Source of the DNA: Kineococcus radiotolerans SRS30216 = ATCC BAA-149
GTDB lineage: Bacteria > Actinomycetota > Actinomycetes > Actinomycetales > Kineococcaceae
DNA length: 32,000 bases
Direction: 5' to 3'
Assembly (NCBI RefSeq): GCF_000017305.1
Contig: NC_009664.2
Span: forward strand, 150,001 to 182,000
The notes under the pieces are model-generated. The model was not told where the DNA came from. It was given only the letters and a program-made list of their open reading frames with translations, and did not search any database. Positions 5,929 to 23,898 of this stretch are shown one piece after another (the first letter of the stretch is position 1; each line of letters begins with the position of its first letter). The translations under genes were made by a program, and so were the position numbers.

Positions 5929-5981
5929 CGGAACCACCAAACGGCGCGGAGTCCGGAACCCGCCGGAAACGTGCCGGAAAC
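5929..5981. promoter_or_regulatory. Array of four direct CCGGAA(A/C)C-type repeats; the last three are at 10-11 bp spacing (candidate operator in a divergent promoter region)
   Basis: cggaacc at 5929, ccggaacc at 5953, ccggaaac at 5963, ccggaaac at 5974. The array lies in the 243-bp gap between the uraD start (5825, minus) and the mocA-like start (6069, plus). Confidence 0.3.
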
Positions 5982-11609: not shown

Positions 11610-12661
11610 GCCCTCGCCTGCCCCGCCGTCGCCAGTCGGGCGATGCGGTCCTCGACCTGCGTCCGCAGGGTCTGCTTGTCGCTCTCGTCCAGCCAGCAAC
11701 CGTCGACGGCGTTGCGGGTGAACTGCGCCAGCTCGTCCAGGCCGTAGCCCAGGGCCCGGGCGAGCACGCGGTAGTCGTGGGTGGGGTCCGTCCCGAACAT
11801 GGGCGGGTCGTCGGAGTCGATGGTCACGCACAACCCGGCGTCGACCATCTCGCGGATGCGGTGGTGGGTCCCGTCGCCGCTGCCCGAGTACCTCCCGATG
11901 TCCGAGCTCACGGGGGTGCAGGTGAAGGGGATGCGCTCGCTCACGCAACGGGCGGTGAGGTCGGGGTCGTCGACGACGTGGTAGCCGTGGTCGATCCGTT
12001 CCCCGCCCAGCAGGTCGAGGATGGTCTCGACGTGGTGGGGAGGCCCGGACTCCGAGTGCGCGGTGCGGTGCAGCCCGGCGCGCCCGGCGAGGGCGAAGGC
12101 CCGCCAGAACTTCTCCGGGGGCCCGATGGCCTCGGAGTAGTCCAGTCCGACCCCCAGGACCTCCTCGCGCCGGTCGGCGATCACCTCCTCGACGAGCTGG
12201 AGACCCGCGGCGGCGCTGTCGTTGCGGTTCAGGGCGACGACGAGACCGGAGGCGATGCCGGTGTCGGCACGGGCGTCGCGTGCACCGGCGATGACCCCGT
12301 CGAGGATGGTGGCGTAGGGAACGCCGGGGTGGCCGGGTGGGCTGAGCATGATCTCGCGGTACAGCACACCGTGAGCGGCGCCACCCGCGGTGAGGGACTC
12401 GTACGTCACCCGGTGGAAGTCGTCCGCGTCGCGGATGACGGCCCCCACGACGTCGAGCACCCGCAGGAACTCGTCGAGGTCGTCGTAGCTCTCGTGGTCG
12501 TAGAGGTCGTCCGCCGTGCAGCCGGGGCGCCCCACCGCCGCGTCGAGGTCCACGTCGTGCTTGCGGGCCAGTTCGAGGACGGTGCTCGCCGACACCGACC
12601 CGATGAGGTGGGTGTGCAGCGACACCTTGGGCAGCCGGGCCGTGAGCTCGTCGAGGTCCAT
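11606..12661 (-). CDS. Adenosine/adenine deaminase-family amidohydrolase
   Basis: 351 aa. LPKVSLHTHLIGS (HxH metal site), HRTAHSES, IDHGYH and TIDSDDPPMFG match the adenosine deaminase superfamily signature. Confidence 0.85.
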   Translation of the reverse strand: MDLDELTARLPKVSLHTHLIGSVSASTVLELARKHDVDLDAAVGRPGCTADDLYDHESYDDLDEFLRVLDVVGAVIRDADDFHRVTYESLTAGGAAHGVLYREIMLSPPGHPGVPYATILDGVIAGARDARADTGIASGLVVALNRNDSAAAGLQLVEEVIADRREEVLGVGLDYSEAIGPPEKFWRAFALAGRAGLHRTAHSESGPPHHVETILDLLGGERIDHGYHVVDDPDLTARCVSERIPFTCTPVSSDIGRYSGSGDGTHHRIREMVDAGLCVTIDSDDPPMFGTDPTHDYRVLARALGYGLDELAQFTRNAVDGCWLDESDKQTLRTQVEDRIARLATAGQARA

Positions 12662-12711
12662 GCGGTCATCCTGCCCGTGCGCCGGGCGCCGTCCCGGGTG
12701 CGGCGCCGACC

Positions 12712-12860
12712 GGTAACACGATGGAAACGCGGGTGGCGACGGAGGGGACGGGGACCGGGGTGCCCGCCCGGCCCGCGTCCACGGACGGAGCCCGCCACCC
12801 GCCGTTCCCGGTGAGGACCACGAAACGCAGAAGTAGTCCGGGGGTAACCAGCCGGAAACG
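12712..12860. promoter_or_regulatory. Two copies of GGTAAC-N5-GGAAACG in a divergent intergenic region (candidate operator pair)
   Basis: ggtaacacgatggaaacg at 12712-12729 and ggtaaccagccggaaacg at 12843-12860. They lie in the 221-bp gap between the deaminase start (12661, minus) and the amidohydrolase start (12883, plus). The second copy contains the same CCGGAAAC core as the 5963/5974 repeats. Confidence 0.25.
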
Positions 12861-12882
12861 GTTCGCGCGTTAACTACCTCTC

Positions 12883-13704
12883 GTGACCCGGACCCACGAC
12901 GCGCACCGCCACCTCGGCCGGCTGCCGGCGTACCCCTTCTACGGCGGTCCTCCCGTCAACCCCGACACCACCGCTCGCGAGCAGATCGCCGACCTGCTCG
13001 ACGACCTGGACCACGAGGGCACCGAACGCGCCCTGCTGCTGCCCAACTACGGCGTGCCGGTCGCCGAGGCCTCCTTCGCGCTGAACGACCTCGTGCTGGA
13101 GACCACCGCGAAGGACGACCGGTTCGTCTGCGGGCTGTGGACCTCACCGCGCAGCGAGGACGCCGCCCTCACCGACGCCGCTCTGGCGCTGGCCGGCGAA
13201 CCCGGCGTGGTCGCGCTGAAGACGAGCTTCCTGCTCGGCGGCGGGGTCGACGACCCGACCTCCCAGCCGCAGATCGAGAGGATCTTCACCACCGCCCGCG
13301 AACGGGACCTCGTCGTCCACGTGCACACCTCTCCCGGGGCGGCCTCCGACATCGACGAGGTCGGCAAGCTCGTCGACCGCTACGGCGACGAGGTCCGCAT
13401 CCACCTCGTCCACCTCGGGGGCGGGATGAGCGCGCACATCAAGCTCATCGGCGGGCGGTTCTTCGACTGGATCGAGGCCGGCAAGAAGGTCTACACCGAC
13501 ACCAGCTGGGCCATCGGCTTCGCCCCCCGCTGGCTGGCCCGGGAGATCGAGCGCCGCGGCGTCGGCGGGGACCGCGTCCTGTTCGCCAGCGACGAACCCT
13601 GGGGCGACCACGCAGGCGAACTGGCCCGCATGCGGGCCGCCGCCGGCGACGGCGAGCTGGCCCGGATGTTCCTGCACGAGAACTTCTCCACCCTCTACGG
13701 CTGA
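12883..13704 (+). CDS. Metal-dependent amidohydrolase (amidohydrolase_2/TIM-barrel type)
   Basis: 273 aa, GTG start. N-terminal HDAHRHLG (HxH), VVHVHTS, IHLVHLGGG and LFASDEPWG resemble the metal ligand set of PF04909-like hydrolases. Same strand as, and 106 bp upstream of, the radical SAM cluster. Confidence 0.75.
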   Translation: MTRTHDAHRHLGRLPAYPFYGGPPVNPDTTAREQIADLLDDLDHEGTERALLLPNYGVPVAEASFALNDLVLETTAKDDRFVCGLWTSPRSEDAALTDAALALAGEPGVVALKTSFLLGGGVDDPTSQPQIERIFTTARERDLVVHVHTSPGAASDIDEVGKLVDRYGDEVRIHLVHLGGGMSAHIKLIGGRFFDWIEAGKKVYTDTSWAIGFAPRWLAREIERRGVGGDRVLFASDEPWGDHAGELARMRAAAGDGELARMFLHENFSTLYG

Positions 13705-13810
13705 CGAGCTCAGCCACCCCGAACCCCCGCCGCGCGGCGACCGCCCCGCGCCCGCACCGCGGCGGGTCACCTCCATCGAGAACCCACCCCACGAGCCAGG
13801 AGCAGCCACC

Positions 13811-14368
13811 ATGACCACCACGACCACCACCCCCGGCACCACCACCACCGAGGTCGAGGAGCAGATCAAGGCGAACATCGCCAAGTCCATCTCGGAGATC
13901 CCCCACCCCGCCCTGCCCAAGGGCAGCAACATCTACGGTTCCACCAAGATCTTCCCGGACTACCAGGCCGAGGACGGCGAGACCTACTTCACCCTCGTGC
14001 ACGGCATCGCCCACGAGTCCTCGGTCAGCTTCGTCGCCGTCCTGCAGGCGACCCGCGCCCTGCGCAAGGGCTTCGAGTCCGCGATCTACTTCTACGGCCC
14101 CGGGTCGATGAACTGCATCGCCACCCGCGGGTTCCCCACCACGGGCGACTCCGGGTTCCCCGGCGAGCAGAACATCAACGGCGCCCTGGAGACGTTCATC
14201 AGGGAGGGCGGCACCGTCTACTGCTGCCGCTTCGGCCTGGCCCTGCACGGCAACCGCGAGGAGGACCTCATCGAGGGCGTCATCCCCTGCCACCCCCTCG
14301 ACGTGCAGGACGCGATCATCCACTACGCCCGCAAGGGCGCCATCATCAACTCCACCTACATGGTCTGA
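13811..14368 (+). CDS. Sll0783/MSMEG_0572-like nitrogen-starvation-response family protein (function unknown)
   Basis: 185 aa; AGGAG lies 9 nt upstream of the ATG. The sequence (IYGSTKIFPDYQAEDGETYFTLVHG...YFYGPGSMNC...GGTVYCCRFGLALHG) and its first position in the cluster fit the small conserved protein of Nit1C-type clusters. The family assignment is from memory. Very high GC3. Confidence 0.7.
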   Translation: MTTTTTTPGTTTTEVEEQIKANIAKSISEIPHPALPKGSNIYGSTKIFPDYQAEDGETYFTLVHGIAHESSVSFVAVLQATRALRKGFESAIYFYGPGSMNCIATRGFPTTGDSGFPGEQNINGALETFIREGGTVYCCRFGLALHGNREEDLIEGVIPCHPLDVQDAIIHYARKGAIINSTYMV

Positions 14369-14392
14369 TCCCCGCGGGCGAGGGGAACGACG

Positions 14393-15517
14393 ATGAGCTG
14401 CCCGGACGCGATCGGTGCCGAGGACCGGGCCACGGCGGGAACCGTCTCCACTCGGGTCGACGTCGCGATCCGCGGTGTCCGCCTCGCCGCACCCGTGCGC
14501 CGCACCGGCGGAGCCGGTCCCAGCGACGACGGCCACGTGGTCCTCGGCGGTCTGGCCACCGCGCTGCCGCTGCGCTCGGACAGCCCCTACCTCGTCCGCG
14601 AGGGCCGGCTGGTCCGGGAGGACCCCCTCGGCGCCCTGCTGGAGGTCACCGACCTCGGCATCGAGGTGGAACCCGTGCAGCGGCCGAGGTTCTACGACCT
14701 CGCCACCACCGACGGGATCCCCTACGAGAAGATCGCGAAGCTGCACGGCCGCGACGTGCTCGCCACCACCGTCGTGCAGACCTGCTCGCGCTACGCCCCC
14801 GAGGACCGCTGCCGCTTCTGCGCGATCGAGTCCTCGCTGGAGTCGGGATCGACCATCGCGGTCAAGACCCCCGCGATGCTCGCCGAGGTCGCCGAGGCCG
14901 CGGTCCGCCTCGACGGGGTGAAACACGTGGTCATGACCACCGGGACCTCCACCGCCCCCGACCGCGGCGCGCGCCACCTCGCCCGCTGCGTCCGGGCGGT
15001 CACCGAGGCCGTGCCCGGCCTGCCCGTGCAGGTGCAGTGCGAACCCCCCGGTGACCTCGCCACCCTCACCGAGCTGAAGGACGCCGGCGCGAGCTCCATC
15101 GGCATCCACGTCGAGTCCCTCGACGAGGCCGTCCGCCGGCGCTGGATGCCGGGGAAGTCCACCGTCCCGATGGCGGAGTACCGCGCCGCCTGGACCGAGG
15201 CCGTCCGCGTGTTCGGGCGCAACCAGGTCTCCACCTACCTCCTCGTCGGCCTCGGGGAGGACCCCGACGAGCTCGTCGCCGGGGCCGAGGACCTCGTCGA
15301 GCTCGGCGTCTACCCCTTCGTCGTGCCCTTCCGGCCGCTGGCCGGAACCCTCGCGGTCGACGTCGACGGGGCGGGGGCCCCCGGGGCGGCCGTCCTGGAG
15401 GACGTCTCGCGCCGCGTCGCGAAGGCCCTGCGCGCGGGCGGGATGCGCGGTGCGGACCAGATGGCCGGCTGCGCGGCGTGCGGGGCCTGCTCCGTGCTGC
15501 AGAACCTGAACGGCTGA
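14393..15517 (+). CDS. Radical SAM protein (MSMEG_0568-like family)
   Basis: 374 aa. Cys triad CSRYAPEDRCRFC (Cx8Cx2C), then TIM-barrel-like VVMTTG, IGIHVESLD and YLLVGLGE, plus a C-terminal CAACGAC motif. Confidence 0.85.
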   Translation: MSCPDAIGAEDRATAGTVSTRVDVAIRGVRLAAPVRRTGGAGPSDDGHVVLGGLATALPLRSDSPYLVREGRLVREDPLGALLEVTDLGIEVEPVQRPRFYDLATTDGIPYEKIAKLHGRDVLATTVVQTCSRYAPEDRCRFCAIESSLESGSTIAVKTPAMLAEVAEAAVRLDGVKHVVMTTGTSTAPDRGARHLARCVRAVTEAVPGLPVQVQCEPPGDLATLTELKDAGASSIGIHVESLDEAVRRRWMPGKSTVPMAEYRAAWTEAVRVFGRNQVSTYLLVGLGEDPDELVAGAEDLVELGVYPFVVPFRPLAGTLAVDVDGAGAPGAAVLEDVSRRVAKALRAGGMRGADQMAGCAACGACSVLQNLNG

Positions 15518-15530
15518 AGGGGAGCGCCCG

Positions 15531-16970
15531 GTGGAACCACGGACCGCGCACGCCGACCCGCCCCCGCTGGAGGTGTCGATCCTGTCGGGTCTCCCCCGTC
15601 AGGTACCGCGCTTCCGGGTGGAGGTGGCCAGCCCCCAGGACGAGGCCGCGTACCTGACGCTGCGCCGCGACGTCTTCGTGGGGGAACAGGGCCTCTTCAC
15701 CGGCGACGACCGGGACGAGACCGACGACGACCCGCGCCGGCGGGTCCTCGTCGCCCGCACCCCGGAGGGGAGGGTCGTGGGTGGTGTCCGCCTCGCCCCG
15801 GCCACCGCCGGCCCCGACATCGGCTGGTGGCGCGGCAGCCGCCTCGTGGTCGCCACCGGCGCGCGCAGCCTCGGCGGCGTCGGGAGCGCCCTGGTCCGCG
15901 CGGCCTGCGCGCACGCCGAGGAGGTCGGCGCGCTGCGCTTCGAGGCGAGCGTGCAGGCCGCCAACGCGGTGCTGTTCCAGCGGCTGGGCTGGGAACGGGT
16001 GCGCGAGCTGGACCTGCACGGCACGCCGCACGTGCTGGTGCGCTACCCGGTGCAGCGCGTCCAGCGCCTGGTGGACGCCACCAAGGCGCCGCTGGCCGCT
16101 CTGCTCGCCGACCTGGGCGGCGGAGCGGACACCGGGGCGGGAGCGCTCGGTGGGGCGGGGTTCCGCGGTGACGACGGAGCCCCCGTGCCGGGCAGCGACC
16201 TGGTGGCGGCCTGCGACGCGATCGTGCCCTCGATGCTCGAGCGGGACCCGGTGTGGGCCGGCTGGTGCGCGGTGCTGGTCAACCTCAACGACCTCGCGGC
16301 GATGGGGGCCACCCCCGTGGGGATGCTCGACGCGCTCGCCGCCCGCGACGCGCACCAGGCGCAGCGCATCGTGTCCGGTCTCCGCGCCGCCGCCACCGCG
16401 TGGGGCGTCCCGGTCCTGGGTGGACACACGCAGCTGGGGGTCCCCGCGGCCCTGTCCGTCACCGCGCTGGGCCGCACCGGCTCCCCGGTTCCCGCCGGGG
16501 GCGGGCGCGCCGGCGACGAGGTGCGGCTGACGGCCGACCTGGGCGGTGGCTGGCGTCCCGGCTACCGCGGCGCGCAGTGGGACTCCACCTCCACCCGGCG
16601 CGGCGAGGACCTGCGCGCCATGGGCTCCTTCGTGGCCCGTTCGCGTCCCGACGCCGCCAAGGACGTCAGCATGGCCGGTCTCGTCGGCACGCTCGGCATG
16701 CTCGCCGAGGCCAGCGGCACCGGCGCGGAGATCGACGTGGCCGCCGTCCCCCGCCCCGGCGCGGCGAGCGTGGGCGACTGGTTCACCTGCTTCCCCGGGT
16801 TCGCGATGGTGACCGCCTCCCGCCCCGGGTGGGAACCGCAGCACGCAGGACCGGCCACGAGCGCAGCCTGCGGGCGCCTCGTGGCGGGAGAAGGGGTCGG
16901 CCTGCGCTGGCCCGACGGAGAGGTGACCCGGGCCGTCCGGGACACCGTGACGGGATGGGGACCGGCATGA
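15531..16970 (+). CDS. Fusion protein: GNAT N-acetyltransferase + PurM/AIR-synthase-like ATP-binding domain (MSMEG_0567 / Sll0786-Sll0787 type)
   Basis: N-terminal GNAT-like region: YLTLRRDVFVGEQGLF...GVGSALVRAACAHAEEVG...NAVLFQRLGWE. C-terminal PurM-superfamily motifs: GDDGAPV, LVAACDAIVP, NDLAAMGATP, VLGGHT. GTG start is preceded by AAGGGGAG. Confidence 0.85.
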   Translation: MEPRTAHADPPPLEVSILSGLPRQVPRFRVEVASPQDEAAYLTLRRDVFVGEQGLFTGDDRDETDDDPRRRVLVARTPEGRVVGGVRLAPATAGPDIGWWRGSRLVVATGARSLGGVGSALVRAACAHAEEVGALRFEASVQAANAVLFQRLGWERVRELDLHGTPHVLVRYPVQRVQRLVDATKAPLAALLADLGGGADTGAGALGGAGFRGDDGAPVPGSDLVAACDAIVPSMLERDPVWAGWCAVLVNLNDLAAMGATPVGMLDALAARDAHQAQRIVSGLRAAATAWGVPVLGGHTQLGVPAALSVTALGRTGSPVPAGGGRAGDEVRLTADLGGGWRPGYRGAQWDSTSTRRGEDLRAMGSFVARSRPDAAKDVSMAGLVGTLGMLAEASGTGAEIDVAAVPRPGAASVGDWFTCFPGFAMVTASRPGWEPQHAGPATSAACGRLVAGEGVGLRWPDGEVTRAVRDTVTGWGPA

Positions 16971-17908
16971 GCAGCACCGGAGCCGTGGGAACGACCAGAC
17001 TGGCCGCCGTGGCCGGGAACTTCGGCCGCGACCTCGAAGCCACGTACGCGCAGGTGGGCCGCGTCCTGGAGCGGGCCCGGGCCGACGGCACCGGGCTGGT
17101 CGCCTTCCCCGAGGCCTGCCTGGGGGGTTACCTCTCCAGCCTGGGCTCGGCCGAGGACAGGGGGACCGCGGCCAGCCGCCGCGGGCGTTCCGGACCGCCC
17201 GCGCTGACCCTGGACGGGCCGGAACTGCGACGGGTGCAGGAGATGGCCGGGGACGTCGTCGTGGTGGTGGGGATGTGCGAGGACGGCGGCCACGACCTGT
17301 ACAACACCGCCGTGGCGCTGACCGGCGACGGGATCCTCGGGGTGCACCGCAAGGTGCACCAGCCGCTGGGCGAGAACCTCACCTACGCCGCCGGTTCCGC
17401 CTTCGACGCGTTCGACACCCCCGTCGGGCGCATCGGTCTGCAGATCTGCTACGACAAGGCCTTTCCCGAGGCCGCTCGCGCCGCGGCCCTGGACGGGGCC
17501 GCCGTCATCGTCAGCATCTCGGCGTGGCCGGGTTCGCGCACCGCCGCCGCCGCCGACCTGGCCCGGGACCGCTGGCGCCTGCGCTTCGACCTCTACGACC
17601 AGGCCCGGGCGCTGGAGAACCAGGTCGTGTGGGTCGCCGCCAACCAGGCCGGGGAGTTCGGTTCGCTGCGGTTCGTCGGCAACGCGAAGATCGTCGGGCC
17701 CGGCGGGGAGGTCCTGGCCAGCACCGGGACGGACGCGGGCATCGCCGTCGCCGACGTCGACATCGAGCACGAATTGGCGCTCGCGCGGCGAGCCATGTTC
17801 AACCTGCGCGACCGCCGCCCCGATGCCTACGGCGCCGTCGTCGCCCCCAACGCCCACGCCGTCCCCGCTGTCCCCGCCGTTCAGGAGGAGGTCCCCAGCC
17901 TTGCCTGA
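16967..17908 (+). CDS. Nitrilase-superfamily carbon-nitrogen hydrolase (cluster nitrilase, catalytic triad intact)
   Basis: 313 aa; ATGA overlap with the upstream gene. Glu in VAFPEACLGGY (17111-17113), Lys in HRKVH (17351-17353), Cys in LQICYDKAFPE (17447-17449). Confidence 0.9.
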   Translation: MSSTGAVGTTRLAAVAGNFGRDLEATYAQVGRVLERARADGTGLVAFPEACLGGYLSSLGSAEDRGTAASRRGRSGPPALTLDGPELRRVQEMAGDVVVVVGMCEDGGHDLYNTAVALTGDGILGVHRKVHQPLGENLTYAAGSAFDAFDTPVGRIGLQICYDKAFPEAARAAALDGAAVIVSISAWPGSRTAAAADLARDRWRLRFDLYDQARALENQVVWVAANQAGEFGSLRFVGNAKIVGPGGEVLASTGTDAGIAVADVDIEHELALARRAMFNLRDRRPDAYGAVVAPNAHAVPAVPAVQEEVPSLA

Positions 17909-18245
17909 GACGACGTTCACGGTGCGCTGGCCCGACGAGACCGTGCAGCACTGCTACTCCCCCTCCCTCGTCGTCCACGACCACCTCGCGGTGGGCGCCG
18001 AGTACCCCGTCGCGGAGTTCCTCGCCCGCGCCGGCACCGCGCTGACCACCGCGAGCGAGCGGGTGCGGGCGAAGTACGGCATGGCCTGCACCTCGGCGAT
18101 GGCCCAGCTCGACGACCTGACCGCCCGCGCAGCGCGCTACGACCCCGCCGCCCCCGTGCGCGTGCTCGGGCTCGAACCGCCCCTCCCCCCGTCGACGCCC
18201 CCCGGACCCGCGCTGACGCAGCGACCCCCTGGAGCCACCCCGTGA
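17901..18245 (+). CDS. MSMEG_0570-like small conserved protein (function unknown)
   Basis: TTG at 17901 is preceded by AGGAGGAGG (17883-17891). It overlaps the nitrilase stop by 8 nt and is overlapped by the next gene's start (GTGA at 18242). Sequence: LPETTFTVRWPDETVQHCYSPSLVVHDHL...YGMACTSAMAQL. The track's 17823 start would overlap the nitrilase by 86 nt. Confidence 0.6.
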   Translation: MPETTFTVRWPDETVQHCYSPSLVVHDHLAVGAEYPVAEFLARAGTALTTASERVRAKYGMACTSAMAQLDDLTARAARYDPAAPVRVLGLEPPLPPSTPPGPALTQRPPGATP

Positions 18246-19579
18246 ACACCCCGCCGGCCACCACCCGTGAGCACCACCCCGTCGTCGTCGTCGGCGCCGG
18301 CCAGGCCGGGCTCTCCCTCAGCTGGCACCTCACCCGGCGCGGTGTCGACCACGTCCTGCTCGAACGCGGCACGACCGCCCACGAATGGCGCGACGGGCGC
18401 TGGGACGCCTTCACCCTGGTCACCCCCAACTTCCAGTGCCGCCTCCCCGGGTGGAGCTACACCGGGGAGTTCGCCGGCACCGACCCCGACGGGTTCATGG
18501 AACGCGACGAGGTGCACCGGTTCGTCACCGAGTACGCCCGTTCCTTCGCCGCCCCCGTCCGCGAAGGCGTGGCGGTCACCTCCCTGCGCCAGCACGGTGG
18601 CGGCTTCGCCCTCTCCACCAGCGCCGGGGAGTTCAGCGCCGACCAGGTCGTGATCGCCACCGGCGGTTACCACGTACCCGTCGTCCCCGCGGCCGCCGAG
18701 CGCCTCCCGCGCGACGTCGTGCAGTTGCACTCCTCCGCCTACCGCAGCGCGCAGCGGCTGCCCGAGGGCGCGGTCCTCGTCGTGGGCTCCGGGCAGTCCG
18801 GCGCCCAGATCGCCGAGGACCTGCACCTGGCCGGCCGCCGCGTCCACCTGGCCGTGGGGAACGCACCGCGGTGCGCCCGCACCTACCGCGGGCGCGACTG
18901 CATCGCGTGGCTGGAGGACATGGGGACCTACGACGTCACCGCCGGCGAGGTCCCCGGAGGCGCAGCCGCGCAGGAGAAGACCAACCACTACATGACCGGG
19001 CGCGACGGAGGTCGCGACATCGACCTGCGCGCCTTCGCCCGGGAGGGCATGGGCCTCCACGGGCGGCTGGAGGACGTGCGCGACGGCGTCGCCCGCTTCG
19101 CGCCGACGCTGGAGCAGGCGCTGGACCACGCCGACTCGGTGATGGAGTCCATCAAGGACGTCATCGACCGCCACATCAGCGCCCGGGGCATCGACGCGCC
19201 GAACGAGGCGCGCTACGTCCCCGTGTGGCGCCCCGAGCAGGAAGTCACCGAGCTCGACCTCGCCGCGGCGGGCATCACCTCGGTCGTGTGGAGCGTCGGC
19301 TACCGCGCGGACCACCGGTGGGTCGAGCTCGGGGTCTTCGACGGGCGCGGGCGCCCCCGCCAGACCCGCGGGGTCACCGGCACGCCGGGCCTCTTCTTCC
19401 TCGGGCTGCCGTGGATGCACACCTGGGGTTCGGGTCGCTTCGCCGGCATCGCCCGCGACGCGGAGTTCCTCGCCGACCAGCTGACCGCGGGCGCGGCTCG
19501 CCTCCCTCCGCCGTCCTCCCCCGCGTCCCGCCCCGCCTCGACGGGCCTCGCCGCGTCGCACCTCACCGCAGCCCGCTGA
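18242..19579 (+). CDS. FAD/NAD(P)-binding flavoprotein oxidoreductase (MSMEG_0569-like, class-B monooxygenase-like)
   Basis: 445 aa with two dinucleotide-binding motifs, VVVVGAGQAGLS and VLVVGSGQSGAQIA, and a C-terminal GLFFLGLPW. Confidence 0.85.
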   Translation: MNTPPATTREHHPVVVVGAGQAGLSLSWHLTRRGVDHVLLERGTTAHEWRDGRWDAFTLVTPNFQCRLPGWSYTGEFAGTDPDGFMERDEVHRFVTEYARSFAAPVREGVAVTSLRQHGGGFALSTSAGEFSADQVVIATGGYHVPVVPAAAERLPRDVVQLHSSAYRSAQRLPEGAVLVVGSGQSGAQIAEDLHLAGRRVHLAVGNAPRCARTYRGRDCIAWLEDMGTYDVTAGEVPGGAAAQEKTNHYMTGRDGGRDIDLRAFAREGMGLHGRLEDVRDGVARFAPTLEQALDHADSVMESIKDVIDRHISARGIDAPNEARYVPVWRPEQEVTELDLAAAGITSVVWSVGYRADHRWVELGVFDGRGRPRQTRGVTGTPGLFFLGLPWMHTWGSGRFAGIARDAEFLADQLTAGAARLPPPSSPASRPASTGLAASHLTAAR

Positions 19580-19581
19580 CC

Positions 19582-20694
19582 GTGCGGATCGCGCTCACGA
19601 CGTACTCCACGAAACCTCGCGGCGGCGTCGTCCACACCCTGGCGCTGGCCGAGGCGCTCGTCGAGGCCGGCGCCGAGGTGAGCGTCTGGACGCTGGGCCG
19701 CAGCGGTGACGCCGGCTTCTTCCGCCCCGTCGCCCCGCAGGTCGACGTCCGCGTCGTACCGTTCCCGGCTCGCGAGGGCGAGAGCGTCGGGGACCGCATC
19801 CTGCGCTCCATCGACGTCCTGCGGGCGGGGTTCGACCCCGCCGGCTACGACGTCGTCCACGCCCAGGACTGCATCAGCGCCAACGCCGTCGGGCGCTGCG
19901 TCCGCACCGTGCACCACCTGGACACGTTCACCACCCCCGCGCTGGCCGCCTGCCACGAACGGGCGATCGTCGAACCGTACGCGCACGTGTGCGTCTCCCG
20001 CGCGGTGGCCGAGGAACTGCGGGAGGGCTGGGGACTGGACCCCGTCGTCATCCCCAACGGCGTGCAGGCGCAACCCTTCACCGACGCGGCGGGCGACGCC
20101 CCCGCCGCAGCGGCGGCCCGCCGGCACTGGCAGGACCGGTTCGGGCGCTACGTCGTCGCCGTCGGCGGCATCGAACCGCGCAAGGGCAGCACCGACCTGC
20201 TGCGGGCCGTCGCCCTCCTGCGCCGGGAACTCCCCGACGTCGCCCTGGTGGTGGCCGGCGGGGAAACCCTCTTCGACTACCGGGACTACCGCGCCGAGTT
20301 CGACCGCCTCGCCGCCGAGCTCGACGTCGCCCCGCACGTCCTGGGCCCGGTCCCCACCGCGGACCTGCCCTCCCTGGTGGCGGGCGCCGCGGCCATGGGT
20401 TTCGTCTCCACCAAGGAGGGTTTCGGGTTGGCCGCCATGGAGGGTCTCGCGGCCGGGATCCCGCTGGTGACGCGGGACCTGCCCGTCCTGCGGGAGGTCT
20501 TCGACGGCGCCGCGGCCTTCGCCGTGGACCCCGCCTCCATCGCGACCGCCCTGCGCGACGCCGTGCTCCGCCCGGACTCCGACGTCCTGGTCGCGCGCCG
20601 GGCCGTCGGAGCCGATCTCGTCGCCCGGCACACGTGGGCGGCGGCCGCCCGAGCGCACCTGGAGTTCTACGCGGCTCTGGCCGAGTTCCCGTGA
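19582..20694 (+). CDS. GT-B (GT4-like) glycosyltransferase (MSMEG_0565-like)
   Basis: 370 aa from GTG 19582, 2 nt after the flavoprotein stop. MRIALTTYSTKPRGGVVHTLALAEAL-type N-terminus, and the EGFGLAAMEGLAAGIPLV retaining-GT motif (E-x7-E). Confidence 0.85.
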   Translation: MRIALTTYSTKPRGGVVHTLALAEALVEAGAEVSVWTLGRSGDAGFFRPVAPQVDVRVVPFPAREGESVGDRILRSIDVLRAGFDPAGYDVVHAQDCISANAVGRCVRTVHHLDTFTTPALAACHERAIVEPYAHVCVSRAVAEELREGWGLDPVVIPNGVQAQPFTDAAGDAPAAAAARRHWQDRFGRYVVAVGGIEPRKGSTDLLRAVALLRRELPDVALVVAGGETLFDYRDYRAEFDRLAAELDVAPHVLGPVPTADLPSLVAGAAAMGFVSTKEGFGLAAMEGLAAGIPLVTRDLPVLREVFDGAAAFAVDPASIATALRDAVLRPDSDVLVARRAVGADLVARHTWAAAARAHLEFYAALAEFP

Positions 20695-20748
20695 CGCCGG
20701 TGAGGACGACCGCCGGTGACGCGATCCGCCGGTGGGCGCAGGCCGGTG
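20695..20748. repeat. Phased direct repeats of (C)GCCGGTG at 16, 16 and 14 bp spacing in an intergenic gap
   Basis: cgccggtga at 20695, cgccggtga at 20711, cgccggtgg at 20727, ggccggtg at 20741. They lie in the 142-bp spacer between the glycosyltransferase stop and the second CN-hydrolase start. Confidence 0.7.
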
Positions 20749-20836
20749 CGGGAACAGGCGCTGACCCGCGCGGGCACCCGCGAGGCGCACCGCAGCCAGT
20801 GGTGCCCTGGCGCGCCGTCGACGGGAGGAACGTGCG

Positions 20837-21694
20837 GTGACGACGATCGGTGGGGTGTCTCGTCCTCTCCGGATCGCCGCGGCCGCGGCGCACTTCGGCC
20901 GAGACCTCGATCGGGGACTGGAGAAGGCGCTCGGCATCGTCGCCGCCGCCCGGCGCGGCGGCATCGACCTGCTGGTCCTGCCCCACGGGACGCTCGGTGG
21001 TTACCTCTCCGACCTCGAGGACCCGCGCAGCGATGAGGTTCCCCCGGCGCTGTCCGCCGACGCCCCGCAGATCGCCGCCGTCGCCGCGGCCGCGGGGCCG
21101 GTGACGGTGTGCCTGGGGTACACCGAGGTGGACGTCCTGCACGGGTACCCGTGCTACTTCAGCGCGGCGGTGTGCCTCACCGGCGACGGTGTCCTGGGTC
21201 GGCACCGGAAGGTGCACCAGCCCGCGGGTGAGGCCAAGGTGTTCTCCGCCGGTGACGGTTTCACCGCGTTCGACACCCCCGTGGGGCGGCTGGGGATGCT
21301 CATCGACTACGACAAGACGTTCCCCGAGGCGGGCCGGTCGCTGGCTCTGGCCGGGGCCCGGACGATCGCCTGCCTCTCCGCGTGGCCGGCCAGCGTCACC
21401 GACCGCGCCTCGCGCCTGCTCGCGGACCGTCAGTCCCGGTTGTTCGACCTCTACGACAGTGCCCGGGCGGCGGAGAACCAGGTCGTCTGGGTCTCCTCGA
21501 ACCAGACCGGGATCCAGGGGAACCTGCGTTTCCTCGGGCAGGCCAAGGTCGTCGGCCCCGGGGGCGACGTGCTGGCGCGGACCGGCTCCAAGGGCGCCCT
21601 GGCGGAGGTGCGGCTCGACGTGGAGCACGAGGTGACCCGGGCGCGCAGGACGTTGCACCACCTGGCGGAACGGCGCTCCGACACCTACCGGTAG
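20837..21694 (+). CDS. Carbon-nitrogen hydrolase paralog lacking the catalytic Glu and Cys (probable pseudoenzyme)
   Basis: 285 aa, collinear with the 16967 nitrilase (RHRKVHQP, NQVVWV and RFLGQAKVVGPGG are shared). However, FPEACLGGY is LPHGTLGGY (His codon 20984-20986) and ICYDKAFPE is LIDYDKTFPE (Asp codon 21305-21307). Confidence 0.85.
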   Translation: MTTIGGVSRPLRIAAAAAHFGRDLDRGLEKALGIVAAARRGGIDLLVLPHGTLGGYLSDLEDPRSDEVPPALSADAPQIAAVAAAAGPVTVCLGYTEVDVLHGYPCYFSAAVCLTGDGVLGRHRKVHQPAGEAKVFSAGDGFTAFDTPVGRLGMLIDYDKTFPEAGRSLALAGARTIACLSAWPASVTDRASRLLADRQSRLFDLYDSARAAENQVVWVSSNQTGIQGNLRFLGQAKVVGPGGDVLARTGSKGALAEVRLDVEHEVTRARRTLHHLAERRSDTYR

Positions 21695-21696
21695 TT

Positions 21697-22060
21697 TCCC
21701 GGCGCTGGAGAACCACCCCCGAAACACCGGGGTTCGAGGTCCGCAACTCCCTCCACCACGAGTTGCGGAGAAGCTGAGGCGGTTCGAGGTCGTACCCGCG
21801 GTCGAGGATGAGGTGCATGGGCGGGTACCAGGAGAGCTGTCGCAGCGGGTGCGGTCCCTGCTGCCGCTGCGCCCGTCGCACCGCTTCCGACGTCCCGGGC
21901 GACGGCCCGGGACGACCGCGCCCCGCCGGCCGGCGTCGTCCCGGTGTTGAAGATCACCTGCTGGCGGCTGCGGCCGGCGTGCTCGCCGATCCGCCACCGC
22001 GAACCACCCACCCCGTGGTGGCAGGAACGGTGAACCACCGCAGAGATCGGGGCCGCGTCC
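21697..22060 (-). mobile_element. Degenerate IS5/IS4-family DDE transposase remnant (frameshifted, truncated at both ends)
   Basis: One minus-strand frame reads GRSRQQVIFNTGTTPAGG, comparable to the GSKHHVITDAGGTPLAV block of IS5-like transposases. A second frame reads GRRPGRRKR and a third reads HLILDRGYDLEP (the DRGYD motif around the second catalytic Asp). No intact ORF and no downstream catalytic Glu region. It abuts the cluster's last stop codon. Confidence 0.4.
21740..21769. other. Perfect 10-bp-stem hairpin flanked by an 11-bp direct repeat
   Basis: tccgcaactc (21740-21749) pairs with gagttgcgga (21760-21769), with a 10-nt loop. ggttcgaggtc occurs at 21731-21741 and again at 21781-21791. 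The hairpin is 46 nt downstream of the second CN-hydrolase stop, so it may act as a terminator. Confidence 0.3.
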
Positions 22061-22754
22061 GACGTGTCCGCTGACGCATCTGATGGAAGGCCGTCACGAG
22101 CCCCCGCCTTGATTCAAGGCTCACCTGCTGTTGCATTCCTCGAGAACCGACACCGAAGGGACCACGAAACCAGCCTCACCGGATGGGAGAACCCAGCGGT
22201 GGAGCGACAGCCGCTTCGTCAGCGCTCGCGGTCAACGCCGTGAGCAGTCGCCTCCACGACCGGACGACCACCCGCCACGACGCACCCGATCTCCGACGGC
22301 ACCGGTGCGGCGGCCGAGCGCGCCGTCCTCGCCCTGACCACCGCACCCTGCACAGCCGGGCCCTGAACGGCGGCCCCACCGTCGGCGCCGCCGTGTCGAG
22401 CCCACCGTCCTGCGCCCACCGAACCGCACCTGAGCAACCCCACCCGTACGACCTCCCCGTCCGCGAGCGCGGGCTCAGCGGCCGCGGGAGCGGTGACGCG
22501 ATCGACGGGCGCGATCGACGACCTCGCCGGGGGCGGTGGTCTCGGCGGCGACGCTGCGGGGACGTCCTCGCGCACCGGAGGGGCGGACCGGGCCCGCGTC
22601 GTGCCCCACATCCCGTGCCATCCACGCGCCGGTGTGGCAGGCTCAGCGCAGAGCAGAACGTGACAGCCCGCCCAGCAGGTGAACACCCCGGCAGCACCAG
22701 CCGGGTTGACGAACCTCGGGCGAGCCGGGATCTGGAGCAGGCAGGAGTGACGAC

Positions 22755-23330
22755 GTGCCCCGCACCACCACCCGCGGCGATCGCACGGCCACCGGCATCG
22801 ACACCCGCCGCGCCGCCACCGTCGGCTTGACCTCCTTCGCCACCCTCACCCTGATCCCCCTGCTCACCCACGCCAAGCCCGGCGAACGCGCTCTCCTCCT
22901 GCTCGCCGCGGTCCCCACCGCCGTACTCCTCGGCTGCCTCGCCGGCTACGCCGCCGCCACCGCACCCGGCTCGGCGACCCGCCTCGACGTCGGGCAGCTG
23001 CACGCCGCGCAGCAGGGCATCGAGGTGCGGGCCGCTCACCTGCAGGCCGCCCGGCACGGCGCGTCCACCGCCGCTCAGCCCTCTGCACCGGTCCTCGAAC
23101 TCGTCAGCGACCCCGTTCCCCCGTCGGGGACCGGGTCGCCCGTGGGGAACGGTCCCCTCGCCGCCCTCCCCCGCCCCCCCGCGGACCAGCACCACGAGCT
23201 GCAGCTCGGGCTCCGCCTGGTGCCCGCCCCCACCCGGGAGGCTCCCGGCGCCGCTGCCGGAACTGCCACCAGCCGACCCGGCGACCGCGATCGCCACCTC
23301 ACCCTCGTCGTCACCCACCCCGCCAGCTGA
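22755..23330 (+). CDS. Hypothetical membrane protein (two predicted TM helices, Pro/Ala-rich tail)
   Basis: 191 aa. GTG is preceded by AGGAG (22742-22746). Very high GC3 in this frame. Hydrophobic segments VGLTSFATLTLIPLLTHA and ALLLLAAVPTAVLLGCLAGYAAA. I recognise no family. Confidence 0.55.
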   Translation: MPRTTTRGDRTATGIDTRRAATVGLTSFATLTLIPLLTHAKPGERALLLLAAVPTAVLLGCLAGYAAATAPGSATRLDVGQLHAAQQGIEVRAAHLQAARHGASTAAQPSAPVLELVSDPVPPSGTGSPVGNGPLAALPRPPADQHHELQLGLRLVPAPTREAPGAAAGTATSRPGDRDRHLTLVVTHPAS

Positions 23331-23532: not shown

Positions 23533-23898
23533 ATGACCCAGATCCCCACCCACGAACCCGCGGACGCGGGCCACGTCGCAGGCCCCGGTGACGCCCGCGC
23601 GGGCTTCGAGATCACTCCCTCGACCGGCGCCGGGCGCGGCGGCGCGGGGGGCGACGTCGAGGACCTCGCCACCCGCGCCGCCCAGGCCCGCCAGACCAAC
23701 GCCCACCGCGCCACCTACGCCGCCGAAGCCCTCCACCGCCACGGCCAGGTCAGCCACAGCGACGCCGACGACATGCAGCGGGCCCTCGTCGAGCTGCTCA
23801 CCGACCTGCACCACCTCTGCGACACCTGCGACCTCGAACTCGCCCCCCTCTACGAAGCCGCCACCCTCATCCACACCCGCGAGACCCAGGCCGCCTAG
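23533..23898 (+). CDS. Hypothetical small protein (121 aa, acidic and His-rich)
   Basis: ATG is preceded by GGAGGA (23521-23526). GC3 is near 95%. The C-terminal half, ALVELLTDLHHLCDTCDLELAPLYEAATLIHTRE, looks structured. No recognisable domain. Confidence 0.6.
   Translation: MTQIPTHEPADAGHVAGPGDARAGFEITPSTGAGRGGAGGDVEDLATRAAQARQTNAHRATYAAEALHRHGQVSHSDADDMQRALVELLTDLHHLCDTCDLELAPLYEAATLIHTRETQAA

Follow-up and report, generated by a model that had tools for sequence, protein, structure and literature searches.

In M. smegmatis, the MSMEG_0565-0572 genes constitute the GlnR-dependent peroxide resistance (gpr) operon, whose expression rises more than 100-fold under nitrogen limitation and which increases the NADPH/NADP ratio (PMC6039565, PMC3662644); its deletion results in peroxide sensitivity and a lower NADPH/NADP ratio (PMC6039565), and a GlnR ChIP-seq peak and 263-fold induction were reported at MSMEG_0572 (PMC3662644). 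Sll0783, a member of the same family as MSMEG_0572, is reported to be highly abundant in starved cells, and an sll0783 mutant shows no rise in NADPH/NADP (PMC3901256). A 2021 paper still termed the function of the cluster obscure (PMC7815647), and a full-text literature search returned no published product or radical SAM substrate. The preliminary description of the locus studied here, which regarded both metabolite and role in actinobacteria as unresolved, thus holds for the product but not wholly for the role, part of which is described by the gpr work.

The Kineococcus cluster, located within a 32,000-nucleotide stretch of DNA (hereafter the window), is the same actinobacterial form (Table 1). 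With a probability of roughly 0.6, we read the region as a single GlnR-controlled nine-gene operon, the Kineococcus version of the gpr cluster, operating by the chemistry proposed below.

Table 1. Genes and predicted GlnR boxes of the Kineococcus cluster, in window positions.
Feature	Position	Strand	Description	Model or detail
distal GlnR box	12713..12728	+	GTAACACGATGGAAAC	a-site GTnAC, 6 nt, b-site GAAAC
proximal GlnR box	12844..12859	+	GTAACCAGCCGGAAAC	-39 to -24 from AH2 start codon
AH2	12883-13704	+	Amidohydro_2 (PF04909) metal-dependent hydrolase, 273 aa	first operon gene
0572	13811-14368	+	MSMEG_0572/Sll0783/NitB family, 185 aa	TIGR04044
rSAM	14393-15517	+	MSMEG_0568-family radical SAM enzyme, 374 aa	TIGR04043
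GNAT-PurM	15531-16970	+	MSMEG_0567 fusion protein, 479 aa	TIGR04045 + TIGR04050
CNH1	16967-17908	+	MSMEG_0571-type carbon-nitrogen hydrolase, 313 aa	PF00795
0570	17901-18245	+	MSMEG_0570/NitG family small protein, 114 aa	TIGR04042
FMO	18242-19579	+	MSMEG_0569-family flavin-dependent oxidoreductase, 445 aa	TIGR04046
GT4	19582-20694	+	MSMEG_0565-family GT4 glycosyltransferase, 370 aa	TIGR04047
CNH2	20837-21694	+	MSMEG_0566-type CNH1 paralog, 285 aa	PF00795

Gene models obtained by GC3 frame analysis coincide exactly with those called independently on four public contigs encoding the identical radical SAM protein (offset 4392), and the layout first described, with eight same-strand genes at 13811-21694 that overlap or lie at most 24 bp apart except for 142 bp before the last, is exact to the base. 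From AH2 to CNH2, consecutive spacers measure 106, 24, 13, -4, -8, -4, 2 and 142 bp, so that only those after AH2 and before CNH2 fall outside the -8 to +24 bp range; no terminator-like site was found in 12500-23000. The 0570 gene, which overlaps CNH1 by 8 bp and FMO by 4 bp, is translationally coupled to both neighbours. As for the longest spacer, we attribute it to a move of CNH2 behind the glycosyltransferase gene in this Kineococcus lineage: the GT-CNH2 order occurs only in the window and in one other locus (L007), CNH2 in other genera lying directly upstream of the glycosyltransferase gene.

Family membership is established by the six to seven curated models that NCBIfam/TIGRFAM provides for the MSMEG_0565-0572 genes, all of which score above their cut-offs (given after each score): TIGR04044 (258 bits; 110), TIGR04043 (533; 304), TIGR04045 (110; 68), TIGR04050 (528; 312), TIGR04042 (127; 80), TIGR04046 (674; 498) and TIGR04047 (485; 260). 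Two further proteins match PF00795 (CN_hydrolase), CNH1 with 137 bits, and one matches PF04909 (Amidohydro_2; 68.6 bits). The initial assignment to a Nit1C / MSMEG_0565-0572 type is therefore retained in its MSMEG part but not as strict Nit1C, because the Nit6803-family nitrilase model TIGR04048 yields 39.8 versus 502.6 bits. The same score, together with 27% identity to Klebsiella NitC, rules out CNH1 as a nitrilase of that family.

Both CN-hydrolases are amidase-like paralogs (49% identical in pairwise alignment), and neither qualifies as a branch-1 nitrilase. CNH1, whose Glu49-Lys129-Cys161 triad is intact and kept in 74/74 orthologs, is amidase- or carbamoylase-like, its nearest solved relatives being PH0642, N-carbamoylputrescine amidohydrolase and Nit2. 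CNH2 has His50 in place of the catalytic Glu and Asp157 in place of the nucleophilic Cys, and is probably non-catalytic or non-canonical; the Cys-to-Asp exchange is found in 67 of 71 best matches, the other four being loci without CNH2 in which CNH1 was matched instead, and hence in all 67 true CNH2 orthologs.

The radical SAM enzyme combines a variant Cx8Cx2C motif (C131, C140, C143) with four more cysteines (C216, C360, C363, C366), all seven invariant across phyla; its sequence suggests a second, auxiliary Fe-S cluster (two in all). It matches variant_rSAM (NF045502) at 151 bits, and its nearest solved structures are, weakly (E 7e-4), lipoyl synthases, the LipA model TIGR00510 scoring 38 bits against a cut-off of 310. 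GNAT-PurM joins an N-terminal GNAT acetyltransferase to a C-terminal PurM/AIR-synthase-like ATP-dependent domain of ThiL/HypE/SelD type; it matches AIRS and AIRS_C, with thiamine-monophosphate kinases and HypE as nearest solved relatives. The flavoprotein, the cluster enzyme best conserved across phyla (55% identity to Klebsiella NitH), is a putative class B (FMO-like, two-dinucleotide-binding) monooxygenase that matches Pyr_redox_3 and Lys_Orn_oxgnase and is closest, among solved structures, to bacterial type II FMOs (4usq, 4a9w); GT4 matches Glyco_transf_4 and Glycos_transf_1.

Two further proteins, 0572 and the small 0570, also have invariant cysteines. The predicted model of 0572 (pLDDT 64) adopts, with moderate confidence, a DsrE/TusD/YchN-like α/β fold, with Foldseek matches to DsrE/DsrEFH/YchN/TusD (probability 1.00, E ~1e-5) that sequence searches do not detect; the Cys139 of its CRF motif is kept without exception from Kineococcus to Klebsiella and Agrobacterium, and its GC3 of 0.99 points to very high expression. 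The 0570 protein, with a core of ~90 aa, contains invariant WPD, SPS and Cys63 motifs, Cys63 being invariant across phyla, and its gene is nearly always directly upstream of that of the flavoprotein; Foldseek matched its model (pLDDT 83) to no PDB structure (best E 1.3).

The complete set of eight core genes was detected in 54 of 80 loci taken from other species of actinobacteria; in most of the remaining loci, contig ends truncate the cluster or the short 0570 protein was missed. Co-localisation, as anticipated from the gene set, is thus far beyond chance across Actinomycetota. Four gene pairs are functional modules that survive gene-order shuffling: rSAM-0567 (76/76 loci), 0570-FMO (59/60), CNH2-GT (65/67) and AH2-0572 (28/28). 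Mycolicibacterium canariasense (L083) has the orthologous gene set in M. smegmatis order, and 0572 is 71-95% identical across actinobacterial orders. Copies of the cluster are also found on plasmids between IS256 elements, its distribution being patchy and mobile. In several loci, as in Klebsiella, an AMP-binding enzyme is encoded immediately behind the cluster.

AH2, initially taken for an amidohydrolase preceding the cluster, is indeed co-oriented and upstream but is no mere neighbour: it is a conserved, lineage-variable ninth member that opens the operon. In 28/80 loci (65-92% identity) it immediately precedes 0572, and it never occupies another position. Of 23 other loci in which the spacer between the two genes was measured, 22 have 21-110 bp and one (L044) has 323 bp of low-complexity sequence. 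Its metal ligands (HxH, His, Asp) are visible in the sequence, although searches found neither an NCBIfam model nor a sequence relative with a solved structure.

Control by nitrogen is suggested by two predicted GlnR boxes, identified as sequence matches to the consensus of PMC3662644. GTNAC-N6-GAAAC occurs only twice in the 32 kb, both strands counted, against 0.09 expected, and both matches fall in the intergenic region directly upstream of AH2, a 221-bp stretch that separates AH2 (+) from the divergently oriented adenosine deaminase gene (-). If the mRNA is leaderless or short-leadered, the proximal box would overlap a -35 region; in Kineococcus rubinsiae, two Nocardioides species and one genome each of Pseudonocardiaceae and Aeromicrobium, AH2 is preceded by the same box at a distance of 38-45 nt. 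In the 400 bp that precede the first cluster gene, a strict box is present in 13/76 loci (~0.5 expected), and so absent from most, and a looser one in 29/76 (~3.6 expected).

The nucleobase-nitrogen island that was noted beside the cluster is real. Its genes encode xanthine dehydrogenase subunits, two PucR regulators, uricase, HIU hydrolase, OHCU decarboxylase, an NCS1 permease, a deaminase and adenosine deaminase; those two that adjoin the cluster are on the minus strand and divergent from it. This adjacency is not conserved in the other loci compared, including two other Kineococcus species, and is therefore a weak genomic argument for the proposed link to nitrogen economy; the link is instead supported through regulation, because both canonical GlnR boxes stand in the intergenic stretch that the cluster has in common with the adenosine deaminase operon.

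We infer each chemical step of the proposed mechanism from superfamily membership. Nitrogen starvation would switch the operon on via GlnR; the abundant DsrE-like 0572, and possibly 0570, would serve as thiol/persulfide or intermediate carriers for the radical SAM enzyme, which would functionalise an unactivated C-H bond of a small metabolite. The PurM-like domain may phosphorylate a carbonyl or amide oxygen, rendering it displaceable, while the fused GNAT domain could acylate an amine and FMO could oxygenate a heteroatom with NADPH and O2. CNH1, plus AH2 where present, would cleave a C-N bond, releasing ammonia or unmasking the product, and in actinobacteria GT4 would add a sugar with its fixed partner CNH2, whose cysteine-less form is probably a binding or scaffold subunit. 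The outcome observed in relatives is nitrogen-starvation adaptation, a higher NADPH/NADP ratio and peroxide resistance. Thiol or carrier chemistry is proposed because of the DsrE/TusD fold and GC3 of 0572, the invariant Cys139, Cys63 and seven radical SAM cysteines, and the weak relatedness of the radical SAM enzyme to lipoyl synthases.

An alternative, which we consider unlikely, is that the operon makes a sulfur-containing, glycosylated, redox-active small molecule under nitrogen starvation, such as a low-molecular-weight thiol or antioxidant cofactor, with the DsrE-like protein feeding sulfur to a LipA-like radical SAM enzyme and GT4, GNAT and amidase paralleling MshA/BshA, MshD and MshB. 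The cluster is both necessary and sufficient for GlnR-dependent peroxide resistance and raises NADPH/NADP (PMC6039565); with the modelled DsrE fold and the invariant cysteines of three proteins, this would fit, as would MshA being the next best NCBIfam match of GT4 after its own family (BshA is also listed) and the weak match of FMO to the YpdA bacillithiol-disulfide reductase family. However, the MshA, BshA and YpdA scores are far below cut-offs and generic to these folds, the inspected proteobacterial clusters share the core yet lack a glycosyltransferase, the cluster holds neither a cysteine ligase nor an obvious sulfur source gene, and the 0572 fold depends on a pLDDT 64 model. Pseudomonad genetics also count against the proposed mechanism, since they point to nitrile/cyanide assimilation and not to redox or sulfur chemistry. 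Growth of Pseudomonas on cyanide genetically requires Nit1C (PMC7815647, PMC11049912), nitrogen-starvation control suits scavenging and most Nit1C families have orthologs here; yet a Kineococcus pathway that scavenges nitrogen from cyanide-derived or natural nitriles, with the CN-hydrolases as key enzymes and the other genes making or recycling a cyanide acceptor, is rather improbable given the absent Nit6803 nitrilase, the grouping of CNH1 with amidases/carbamoylases, a CNH2 without nucleophile, a glycosyltransferase without obvious part in assimilation and an actinobacterial phenotype of redox balance and peroxide, not cyanide (PMC6039565).

That the genes form an ordinary secondary-metabolite cluster for a secreted natural product, for instance a siderophore-like or antibiotic compound, apart from nitrogen physiology, seems improbable by a wide measure, despite their tailoring-type enzymes (radical SAM, GNAT, N-oxygenase-like flavoprotein, glycosyltransferase and, in several loci, the downstream AMP-binding enzyme), the patchy, mobile occurrence that includes plasmid copies, and the GO term 'biosynthetic process' attached by NCBI: scaffold synthase, exporter and pathway regulator are absent from the cluster, with none conserved beside it, the conservation of proteins such as 0572 is unusually high for tailoring enzymes, GlnR boxes are conserved, and nitrogen starvation induces the M. 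smegmatis cluster more than 100-fold (PMC3662644). Selenoprotein read-through, an idea raised for M. smegmatis (PMC6039565) in which the stop of the MSMEG_0571 homolog encodes selenocysteine to give a nitrilase-0570-flavoprotein fusion, could invoke the distant relationship of the PurM-like domain to SelD (TIGR00476, 45.9 bits, cut-off 125) but is hardly credible. It is contradicted in the window, where CNH1, 0570 and FMO stand in three different reading-frame relationships, so that read-through of the CNH1 stop cannot fuse them; in other genomes the three genes are also arranged differently, including on separate strands.

In summary, the Kineococcus locus, under the preferred reading of a GlnR-controlled operon, represents a nine-gene nitrogen-starvation operon that is widespread and already catalogued, and is not a new kind of system. 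The gpr cluster is a sister form of Nit1C, with which, in proteobacteria and cyanobacteria, it has a conserved core in common: a DsrE-like cysteine protein, a radical SAM enzyme, a GNAT, a PurM-like enzyme, a 0570-type protein with FMO, and one active CN-hydrolase. Six of the seven Nit1C gene families have orthologs in the Kineococcus cluster, which are 36-55% identical to those of a Klebsiella plasmid Nit1C. Unlike Nit1C, which is defined by its Nit6803-family nitrilase, the Kineococcus cluster does without that enzyme; GT4, absent from the Klebsiella and Agrobacterium Nit1C clusters inspected, is in turn a trait of the actinobacterial form.

The MSMEG_0565-0572 identity proposed in the preliminary description is real and correct: six of the nine plus-strand genes score above the curated cut-offs of seven NCBIfam models, the GNAT-PurM fusion protein (0567) matching two of them, and the cluster is a member of a known, curated family. 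The organism is a Kineococcus, the radical SAM protein being 97% identical to that of K. radiotolerans. Raw lists of open reading frames are crowded because the window is about 75% G+C, and the gene models tabulated here come from third-position GC analysis and inspection of start codons; the same nine genes are called independently on public contigs encoding an identical radical SAM protein (rSAM). Successive genes are separated by 106, 24, 13, −4, −8, −4, 2 and 142 bp, exactly as first described, the adjacent genes for the MSMEG_0570 protein (0570) and the MSMEG_0569 flavoprotein (FMO) overlapping by 4 bp. A selenoprotein read-through fusion (PMC6039565) is ruled out here by the reading frames and overlaps.

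Features of the cluster and its surroundings, with coordinates in the window and supporting matches
Feature	Coordinates	Strand	Match or description
Tandem GlnR-type half-sites	5955-5981		GGAAC-n6-GAAAC-n6-GAAAC
Adenosine deaminase and NtaA/DmoA-family FMN monooxygenase	10260-12661	-	TIGR01430 230 bits; TIGR03860 456 bits
Distal GlnR box (putative)	12713-12728
Proximal GlnR box (putative)	12844-12859
AH2	12883-13704	+	Pfam Amidohydro_2
GC-rich hairpin	13726-13766		9-bp perfect stem, in the AH2-0572 spacer
0572	13811-14368	+	TIGR04044 258.5 bits (cut-off 109.85)
rSAM	14393-15517	+	TIGR04043 533.2 bits (cut-off 303.7)
GNAT-PurM fusion (0567)	15531-16970	+	TIGR04045 110.4 bits (cut-off 68.45); TIGR04050 527.7 bits (cut-off 312.2)
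CNH1	16967-17908	+	PF00795 CN_hydrolase
0570	17901-18245	+	TIGR04042 126.7 bits (cut-off 79.85)
FMO	18242-19579	+	TIGR04046 673.7 bits (cut-off 498.35)
GT4	19582-20694	+	TIGR04047 485.3 bits (cut-off 259.85)
Spacer, 142 bp	20695-20836		four CCGGTG copies within ~60 bp
CNH2	20837-21694	+	PF00795 CN_hydrolase
Orphan ORF	22755-23330		191 aa, hydrophobic stretches
Orphan ORF	23533-23898		121 aa
Co-oriented five-gene set	24135-32000		SWIM zinc-finger, DUF5691, MoxR-type AAA_5 ATPase, DUF5682, VWA_CoxE

No curated NCBIfam model is dedicated to either CN-hydrolase paralog, and the orthology of CNH1 and CNH2 follows from best hits and gene positions in a comparison with 80 loci, one of them a Mycolicibacterium canariasense locus (L083) whose mycobacterial gene order identifies CNH1 as the ortholog of MSMEG_0571 and CNH2 as that of MSMEG_0566. 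All the family models originally proposed are matched except that of the Nit6803-family branch-1 nitrilase (TIGR04048, nitrile_sll0784), against which CNH1 reaches 39.8 bits (cut-off 502.6) and CNH2 has no match. The defining nitrilase being absent, the cluster was rejected as a Nit1C locus in the strict sense. Near the cluster there is likewise no sigma-54-dependent NitA: no sigma-54 activator domain was detected, and the only regulators found in the window are two PucR-family proteins. For the subfamily of the Amidohydro_2 protein (AH2), the searches yielded no NCBIfam model and, even at an E-value of 5, no solved structure related to it by sequence.

Among solved structures, both CN-hydrolases come closest to amidases and carbamoylases and not to branch-1 nitrilases. 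The Glu-Lys-Cys triad of CNH1 is kept in 74 of 74 orthologs; in CNH2, which is 49% identical to CNH1, the positions of the catalytic Glu and Cys are occupied by His50 and Asp157, and Asp replaces Cys in all 67 loci with a true CNH2. Lacking these catalytic residues, CNH2 is most likely a non-catalytic partner, and its near-invariant position before the MSMEG_0565 glycosyltransferase (GT4) suggests that enzyme as its place of action.

Across actinobacterial orders the MSMEG_0572 protein (0572) keeps 71-95% identity; to proteobacterial NitB the figure is 45-47%. Its AlphaFold model (pLDDT 64) matches DsrE, DsrEFH, YchN and TusD with a Foldseek probability of 1.00 (3mc3, 2hy5, 1jx7 and 2d1p; E 1.2e-5 to 9e-4, target TM-score 0.58-0.82), and Cys139, invariant across phyla, is placed by the same pLDDT 64 model at a strand end just before a helix, which makes it a candidate equivalent of Cys78 of DsrE/TusD. 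A Pfam scan at E ≤ 0.001 assigned 0572 to no family, DsrE or other; searches of PDB sequences for a DsrE-type chain, by phmmer and with a 27-sequence profile, gave spurious matches only, and an hhalign comparison with TusD paired 13 residues in a plausible register, without significance. The model of 0570 is confident (pLDDT 83) and finds no fold match in the PDB with Foldseek; its Cys63 is also invariant. In rSAM, a Cx8Cx2C motif is accompanied by four further invariant cysteines, consistent with an auxiliary Fe-S cluster and hence probably two clusters in all. Lipoyl synthases are the closest solved relatives of rSAM, weakly so, and membership of the LipA family was rejected (TIGR00510, 37.9 bits against a cut-off of 310.25), leaving a distant relationship only. 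The PurM-like domain is closest to ThiL and HypE, and FMO to bacterial type II FMOs.

A scan of both strands of the window for the actinobacterial GlnR box GTnAC-N6-GAAAC gave just two copies, against 0.09 expected, and both fall inside the 221-bp region between the adenosine deaminase gene and AH2. The proximal copy covers nt −39 to −24 relative to the AH2 start codon, the same position as in five other AH2-containing loci. Across 76 loci, the 400 bp ahead of the first cluster gene contain a strict box in 13 (about 0.5 expected) and a relaxed one in 29 (about 3.6 expected); in M. smegmatis, GlnR binds at MSMEG_0572, a gene whose induction is 263-fold (PMC3662644). The AH2-0572 spacer of the window contains no GlnR box and, in the 23 other loci measured, spans 21-110 bp in all but one (L044, 323 bp of low-complexity sequence), which argues for AH2 as the first gene of the operon. 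No gene in the window is more biased in its codon use than 0572 (GC3 0.99, GC1 0.53), consistent with very high expression, which is also reported for Sll0783 (PMC3901256).

Rfam, tRNA and terminator scans of the spacers were all empty. The AH2-0572 spacer carries a strong GC-rich hairpin, within a 116-nt stretch of −41 kcal/mol (z −2.96), that is missing at this place from other Kineococcus species and from other genera, where the spacer is much shorter; judged by this distribution it is lineage-specific, and it may serve to stabilise the mRNA or as an attenuator.

The purine/nucleobase catabolic island reported beside the cluster is genuine and lies upstream; it comprises xanthine dehydrogenase subunits, two PucR regulators, uricase, HIU hydrolase, OHCU decarboxylase, a MobA-like protein, an NCS1 permease and a deaminase. 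The adenosine deaminase and NtaA/DmoA-family genes, which overlap by 4 bp, adjoin the cluster divergently from AH2 and share with it the intergenic region bearing the GlnR boxes, so that the two transcription units are probably co-induced. Tandem GlnR-type half-sites are also present between the divergent OHCU decarboxylase/uricase operon (minus strand) and MobA-like gene (plus strand), which suggests that the island is under GlnR control as well and that island and cluster probably share their regulation in this genome, although other loci do not keep them side by side. A conserved linkage was rejected, since adenosine deaminase and the NtaA-type monooxygenase stand beside the cluster in none of the 80 other loci, two Kineococcus species included, and no purine-island gene accompanies it in any other compared locus. 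Downstream, from 21695 on, about 1 kb without a called gene precedes two orphan ORFs, neither with a match in Pfam, NCBIfam or PADLOC. The five-gene set beyond them is unrelated to the cluster, and a defence-system reading of its SWIM, MoxR and VWA genes was rejected, with zero PADLOC matches.

The Nit1C/gpr gene set, reportedly first noticed in 2005, occurs in thousands of genomes and is among the loci most strongly induced by nitrogen starvation in mycobacteria and cyanobacteria. The rSAM family search gave more than 7000 relatives at E ≤ 1e-20 among 8000 candidates examined, with at least 394 confirmed places in species-representative genomes. When 80 loci from other actinobacterial species were searched with the proteins of the window, the expected co-localisation of orthologs was borne out, all eight core genes being detected in 54; the remaining loci mostly run into contig ends or come without the short 0570 protein. 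Among at least ten gene orders, four pairs persist: rSAM then 0567 (76 of 76 loci), 0570 then FMO (59 of 60), CNH2 then GT (65 of 67) and AH2 then 0572 (28 of 28). AH2 is found in Kineococcus, Nakamurella, Frankia, Nocardioides, Streptomyces, Streptosporangiaceae, Pseudonocardiaceae and relatives, and is missing from Nocardia, Rhodococcus, Gordonia, Mycolicibacterium and most Microbacteriaceae in this comparison. The order GT then CNH2, the source of the 142-bp spacer, is limited to the window and K. rubinsiae among the compared loci, pointing to a local rearrangement. The spacer folds no better than shuffled sequence, and it may be the scar of the rearrangement that put CNH2 behind GT.

Clustering of 578 flanking ORFs revealed no neighbour widely common to the loci, and the cluster behaves like a self-contained, mobile unit. 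Direct evidence of its moving as a unit comes from Rhodococcus qingshengii N9T-4 (L086), whose 565-kb linear plasmid pN9T4-1 carries the complete eight-gene actinobacterial cluster (10995-18481) flanked by two IS256 transposase genes. In a tblastn search of PLSDB plasmids with the 0572 protein, 516 records matched, 374 of them from Klebsiella, making Nit1C an unexplained cargo of clinically relevant plasmids; one such plasmid, of Klebsiella pneumoniae (L085, NZ_CP032241.1, IncFIB/IncHI1B), bears a complete Nit1C together with an AMP-binding enzyme (13187-14686), at the place where Agrobacterium has a Pnap_2097-family protein. An AMP-binding (adenylate-forming) enzyme also lies directly downstream of the cluster in six compared loci (L006, L036, L038, L042, L050 and L074), and such neighbours hint that a carboxylate intermediate may be activated in some lineages. 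A 3-kb contig labelled as a Janthinobacterium lividum metagenome-assembled genome (L005, JBPBQU010000466.1) encodes 0572, rSAM and 0567 proteins 73-95% identical to those of Kineococcus and is almost certainly a mis-binned actinobacterial contig.

Full-text literature searches found no published product assignment for the cluster, in keeping with the preliminary description. The reading favoured here, held with a probability of roughly 0.6, is layered: the family identity, nitrogen regulation through GlnR, and a small-molecule pathway ending in hydrolysis. In such a pathway, the abundant, putatively DsrE-like 0572 and the small 0570 would serve as cysteine-based carriers for an rSAM with probably two Fe-S clusters; a small metabolite would be assembled or altered through ATP-dependent activation by the PurM-like domain, acylation by the GNAT and oxygenation by the flavoprotein; C-N bonds would be cut by CNH1, alone or together with AH2; and in actinobacteria the GT4 and CNH2 pair would glycosylate the product. 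Each of these chemical steps, taken individually, is unlikely to be right as drawn. A longer shot still is an undescribed molecule made by sulfur or thiol chemistry, in which DsrE-like 0572 would pass a persulfide or tethered intermediate to a two-cluster rSAM, and GT4 with the cysteine-less CNH2 would glycosylate what might be a redox-active, nitrogen-starvation-specific metabolite; if true, it would explain the peroxide-resistance and NADPH phenotypes of relatives and a 20-year-old Nit1C puzzle.

Nitrile or cyanide assimilation, which draws on the requirement for Nit1C in cyanide assimilation by Pseudomonas (PMC7815647), is weakened by the missing Nit6803 nitrilase, and an ordinary secondary-metabolite cluster is disfavoured by the conservation and regulation of the genes and by their lack of scaffold or export functions. 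A thiol-like antioxidant pathway is attractive, the similarities on which it is based being generic.

This analysis adds details that can be put to the test: a CNH2 without its cysteine, AH2 as an accessory gene, gene pairs that stay together, and invariant cysteines surrounding a predicted DsrE-like fold. In the actinobacterial form the nitrilase is swapped for an amidase-type enzyme and a cysteine-less paralog tied to a glycosyltransferase, AH2 would be an optional first or last step, and invariant cysteines span phyla in three proteins, around the modelled fold and an rSAM with probably two clusters. The four pairs that survive rearrangement (rSAM-0567, 0570-FMO, CNH2-GT and AH2-0572) are natural units for biochemical reconstitution. 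This copy is not more tractable than the M. smegmatis model, though the question is old and significant.

Compared with mycothiol and bacillithiol synthesis (MshA/BshA GT4, MshB/BshB deacetylase, MshD GNAT), the cluster shares the combination of a GT4, an amide hydrolase and a GNAT domain, in a host group that relies on low-molecular-weight thiols and with a peroxide-resistance phenotype in relatives. This likeness is at superfamily level only (MshA 57.5 against 462.5 bits, BshA 30.8 against 273.7); the cluster has no cysteine ligase, and its radical SAM, PurM-like and flavoprotein parts are without counterpart in those pathways. The parallel with the DsrEFH/TusBCD relay and sulfur insertion by lipoyl synthase is a functional analogy only, by which sulfur transfer in the cluster may be hypothesised: 0572 has a predicted DsrE/TusD-like fold with an invariant cysteine at a strand-helix junction, and rSAM has extra invariant cysteines consistent with an auxiliary cluster, with lipoyl synthases as its nearest solved relatives. 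By sequence, 0572 was not found to belong to the relay families, LipA models score far under their cut-offs, and the cluster includes neither a DsrC/TusE-type acceptor nor a cysteine desulfurase.

Closer relatives are the Nit1C loci. Orthologs of Klebsiella NitB, NitD, NitE, NitF, NitG and NitH (47, 45, 39, 36, 40 and 55% identity) are all in one operon in the window, where the GNAT and PurM-like genes, separate in Nit1C as NitE and NitF, are fused; CNH1 and NitC are only 27% identical, so that the two forms have six proteins in common as a core, while the CN-hydrolase comes from different branches of its superfamily. The two copies inspected, on the Klebsiella IncFIB/IncHI1B plasmid and an Agrobacterium pAt plasmid, are both ordered NitB, Nit6803 nitrilase, rSAM, GNAT, AIR-synthase-like, 0570 and FMO, each with one extra gene (AMP-binding or Pnap_2097 family, respectively) and a divergent MocR-like gene; neither has the glycosyltransferase, cysteine-less CNH2 or AH2, which were seen in the actinobacterial loci only. 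The regulators also differ, being sigma-54 NitA or a MocR-like gene in proteobacteria, NtcA in cyanobacteria and putative GlnR boxes in the window. Both forms share induction by nitrogen limitation, known from relatives, in which strong GlnR- or NtcA-dependent induction in nitrogen starvation is described and the genes are required for peroxide resistance and a raised NADPH/NADP ratio (M. smegmatis, Synechocystis; PMC6039565, PMC3901256), and mutation of Nit1C affects NADPH balance in Synechocystis or nitrogen-source use in Pseudomonas.

The nearest counterpart is the M. smegmatis gpr operon, needed for peroxide resistance and associated with raised NADPH/NADP, a phenotype known in that species only (PMC6039565). 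Operon and window have in common all eight gene families (TIGR04042-04047, TIGR04050 and two CN-hydrolase paralogs, one of active type and one cysteine-less), the fused GNAT and PurM-like domains, GT4 and an upstream GlnR box, predicted here. They differ in order, 0572-rSAM-0567-CNH1-0570-FMO-GT-CNH2 in the window against 0572-CNH1-0570-FMO-rSAM-0567-CNH2-GT in the mycobacterial type, CNH2 in the window standing behind GT and leaving the 142-bp spacer. The cluster of the window has, as an added first gene, an Amidohydro_2 gene missing from Mycobacteriales loci, and shares its promoter region with a divergent adenosine deaminase/NtaA-family monooxygenase operon; its proteins are 52-79% identical to the Mycolicibacterium ortholog set (L083).
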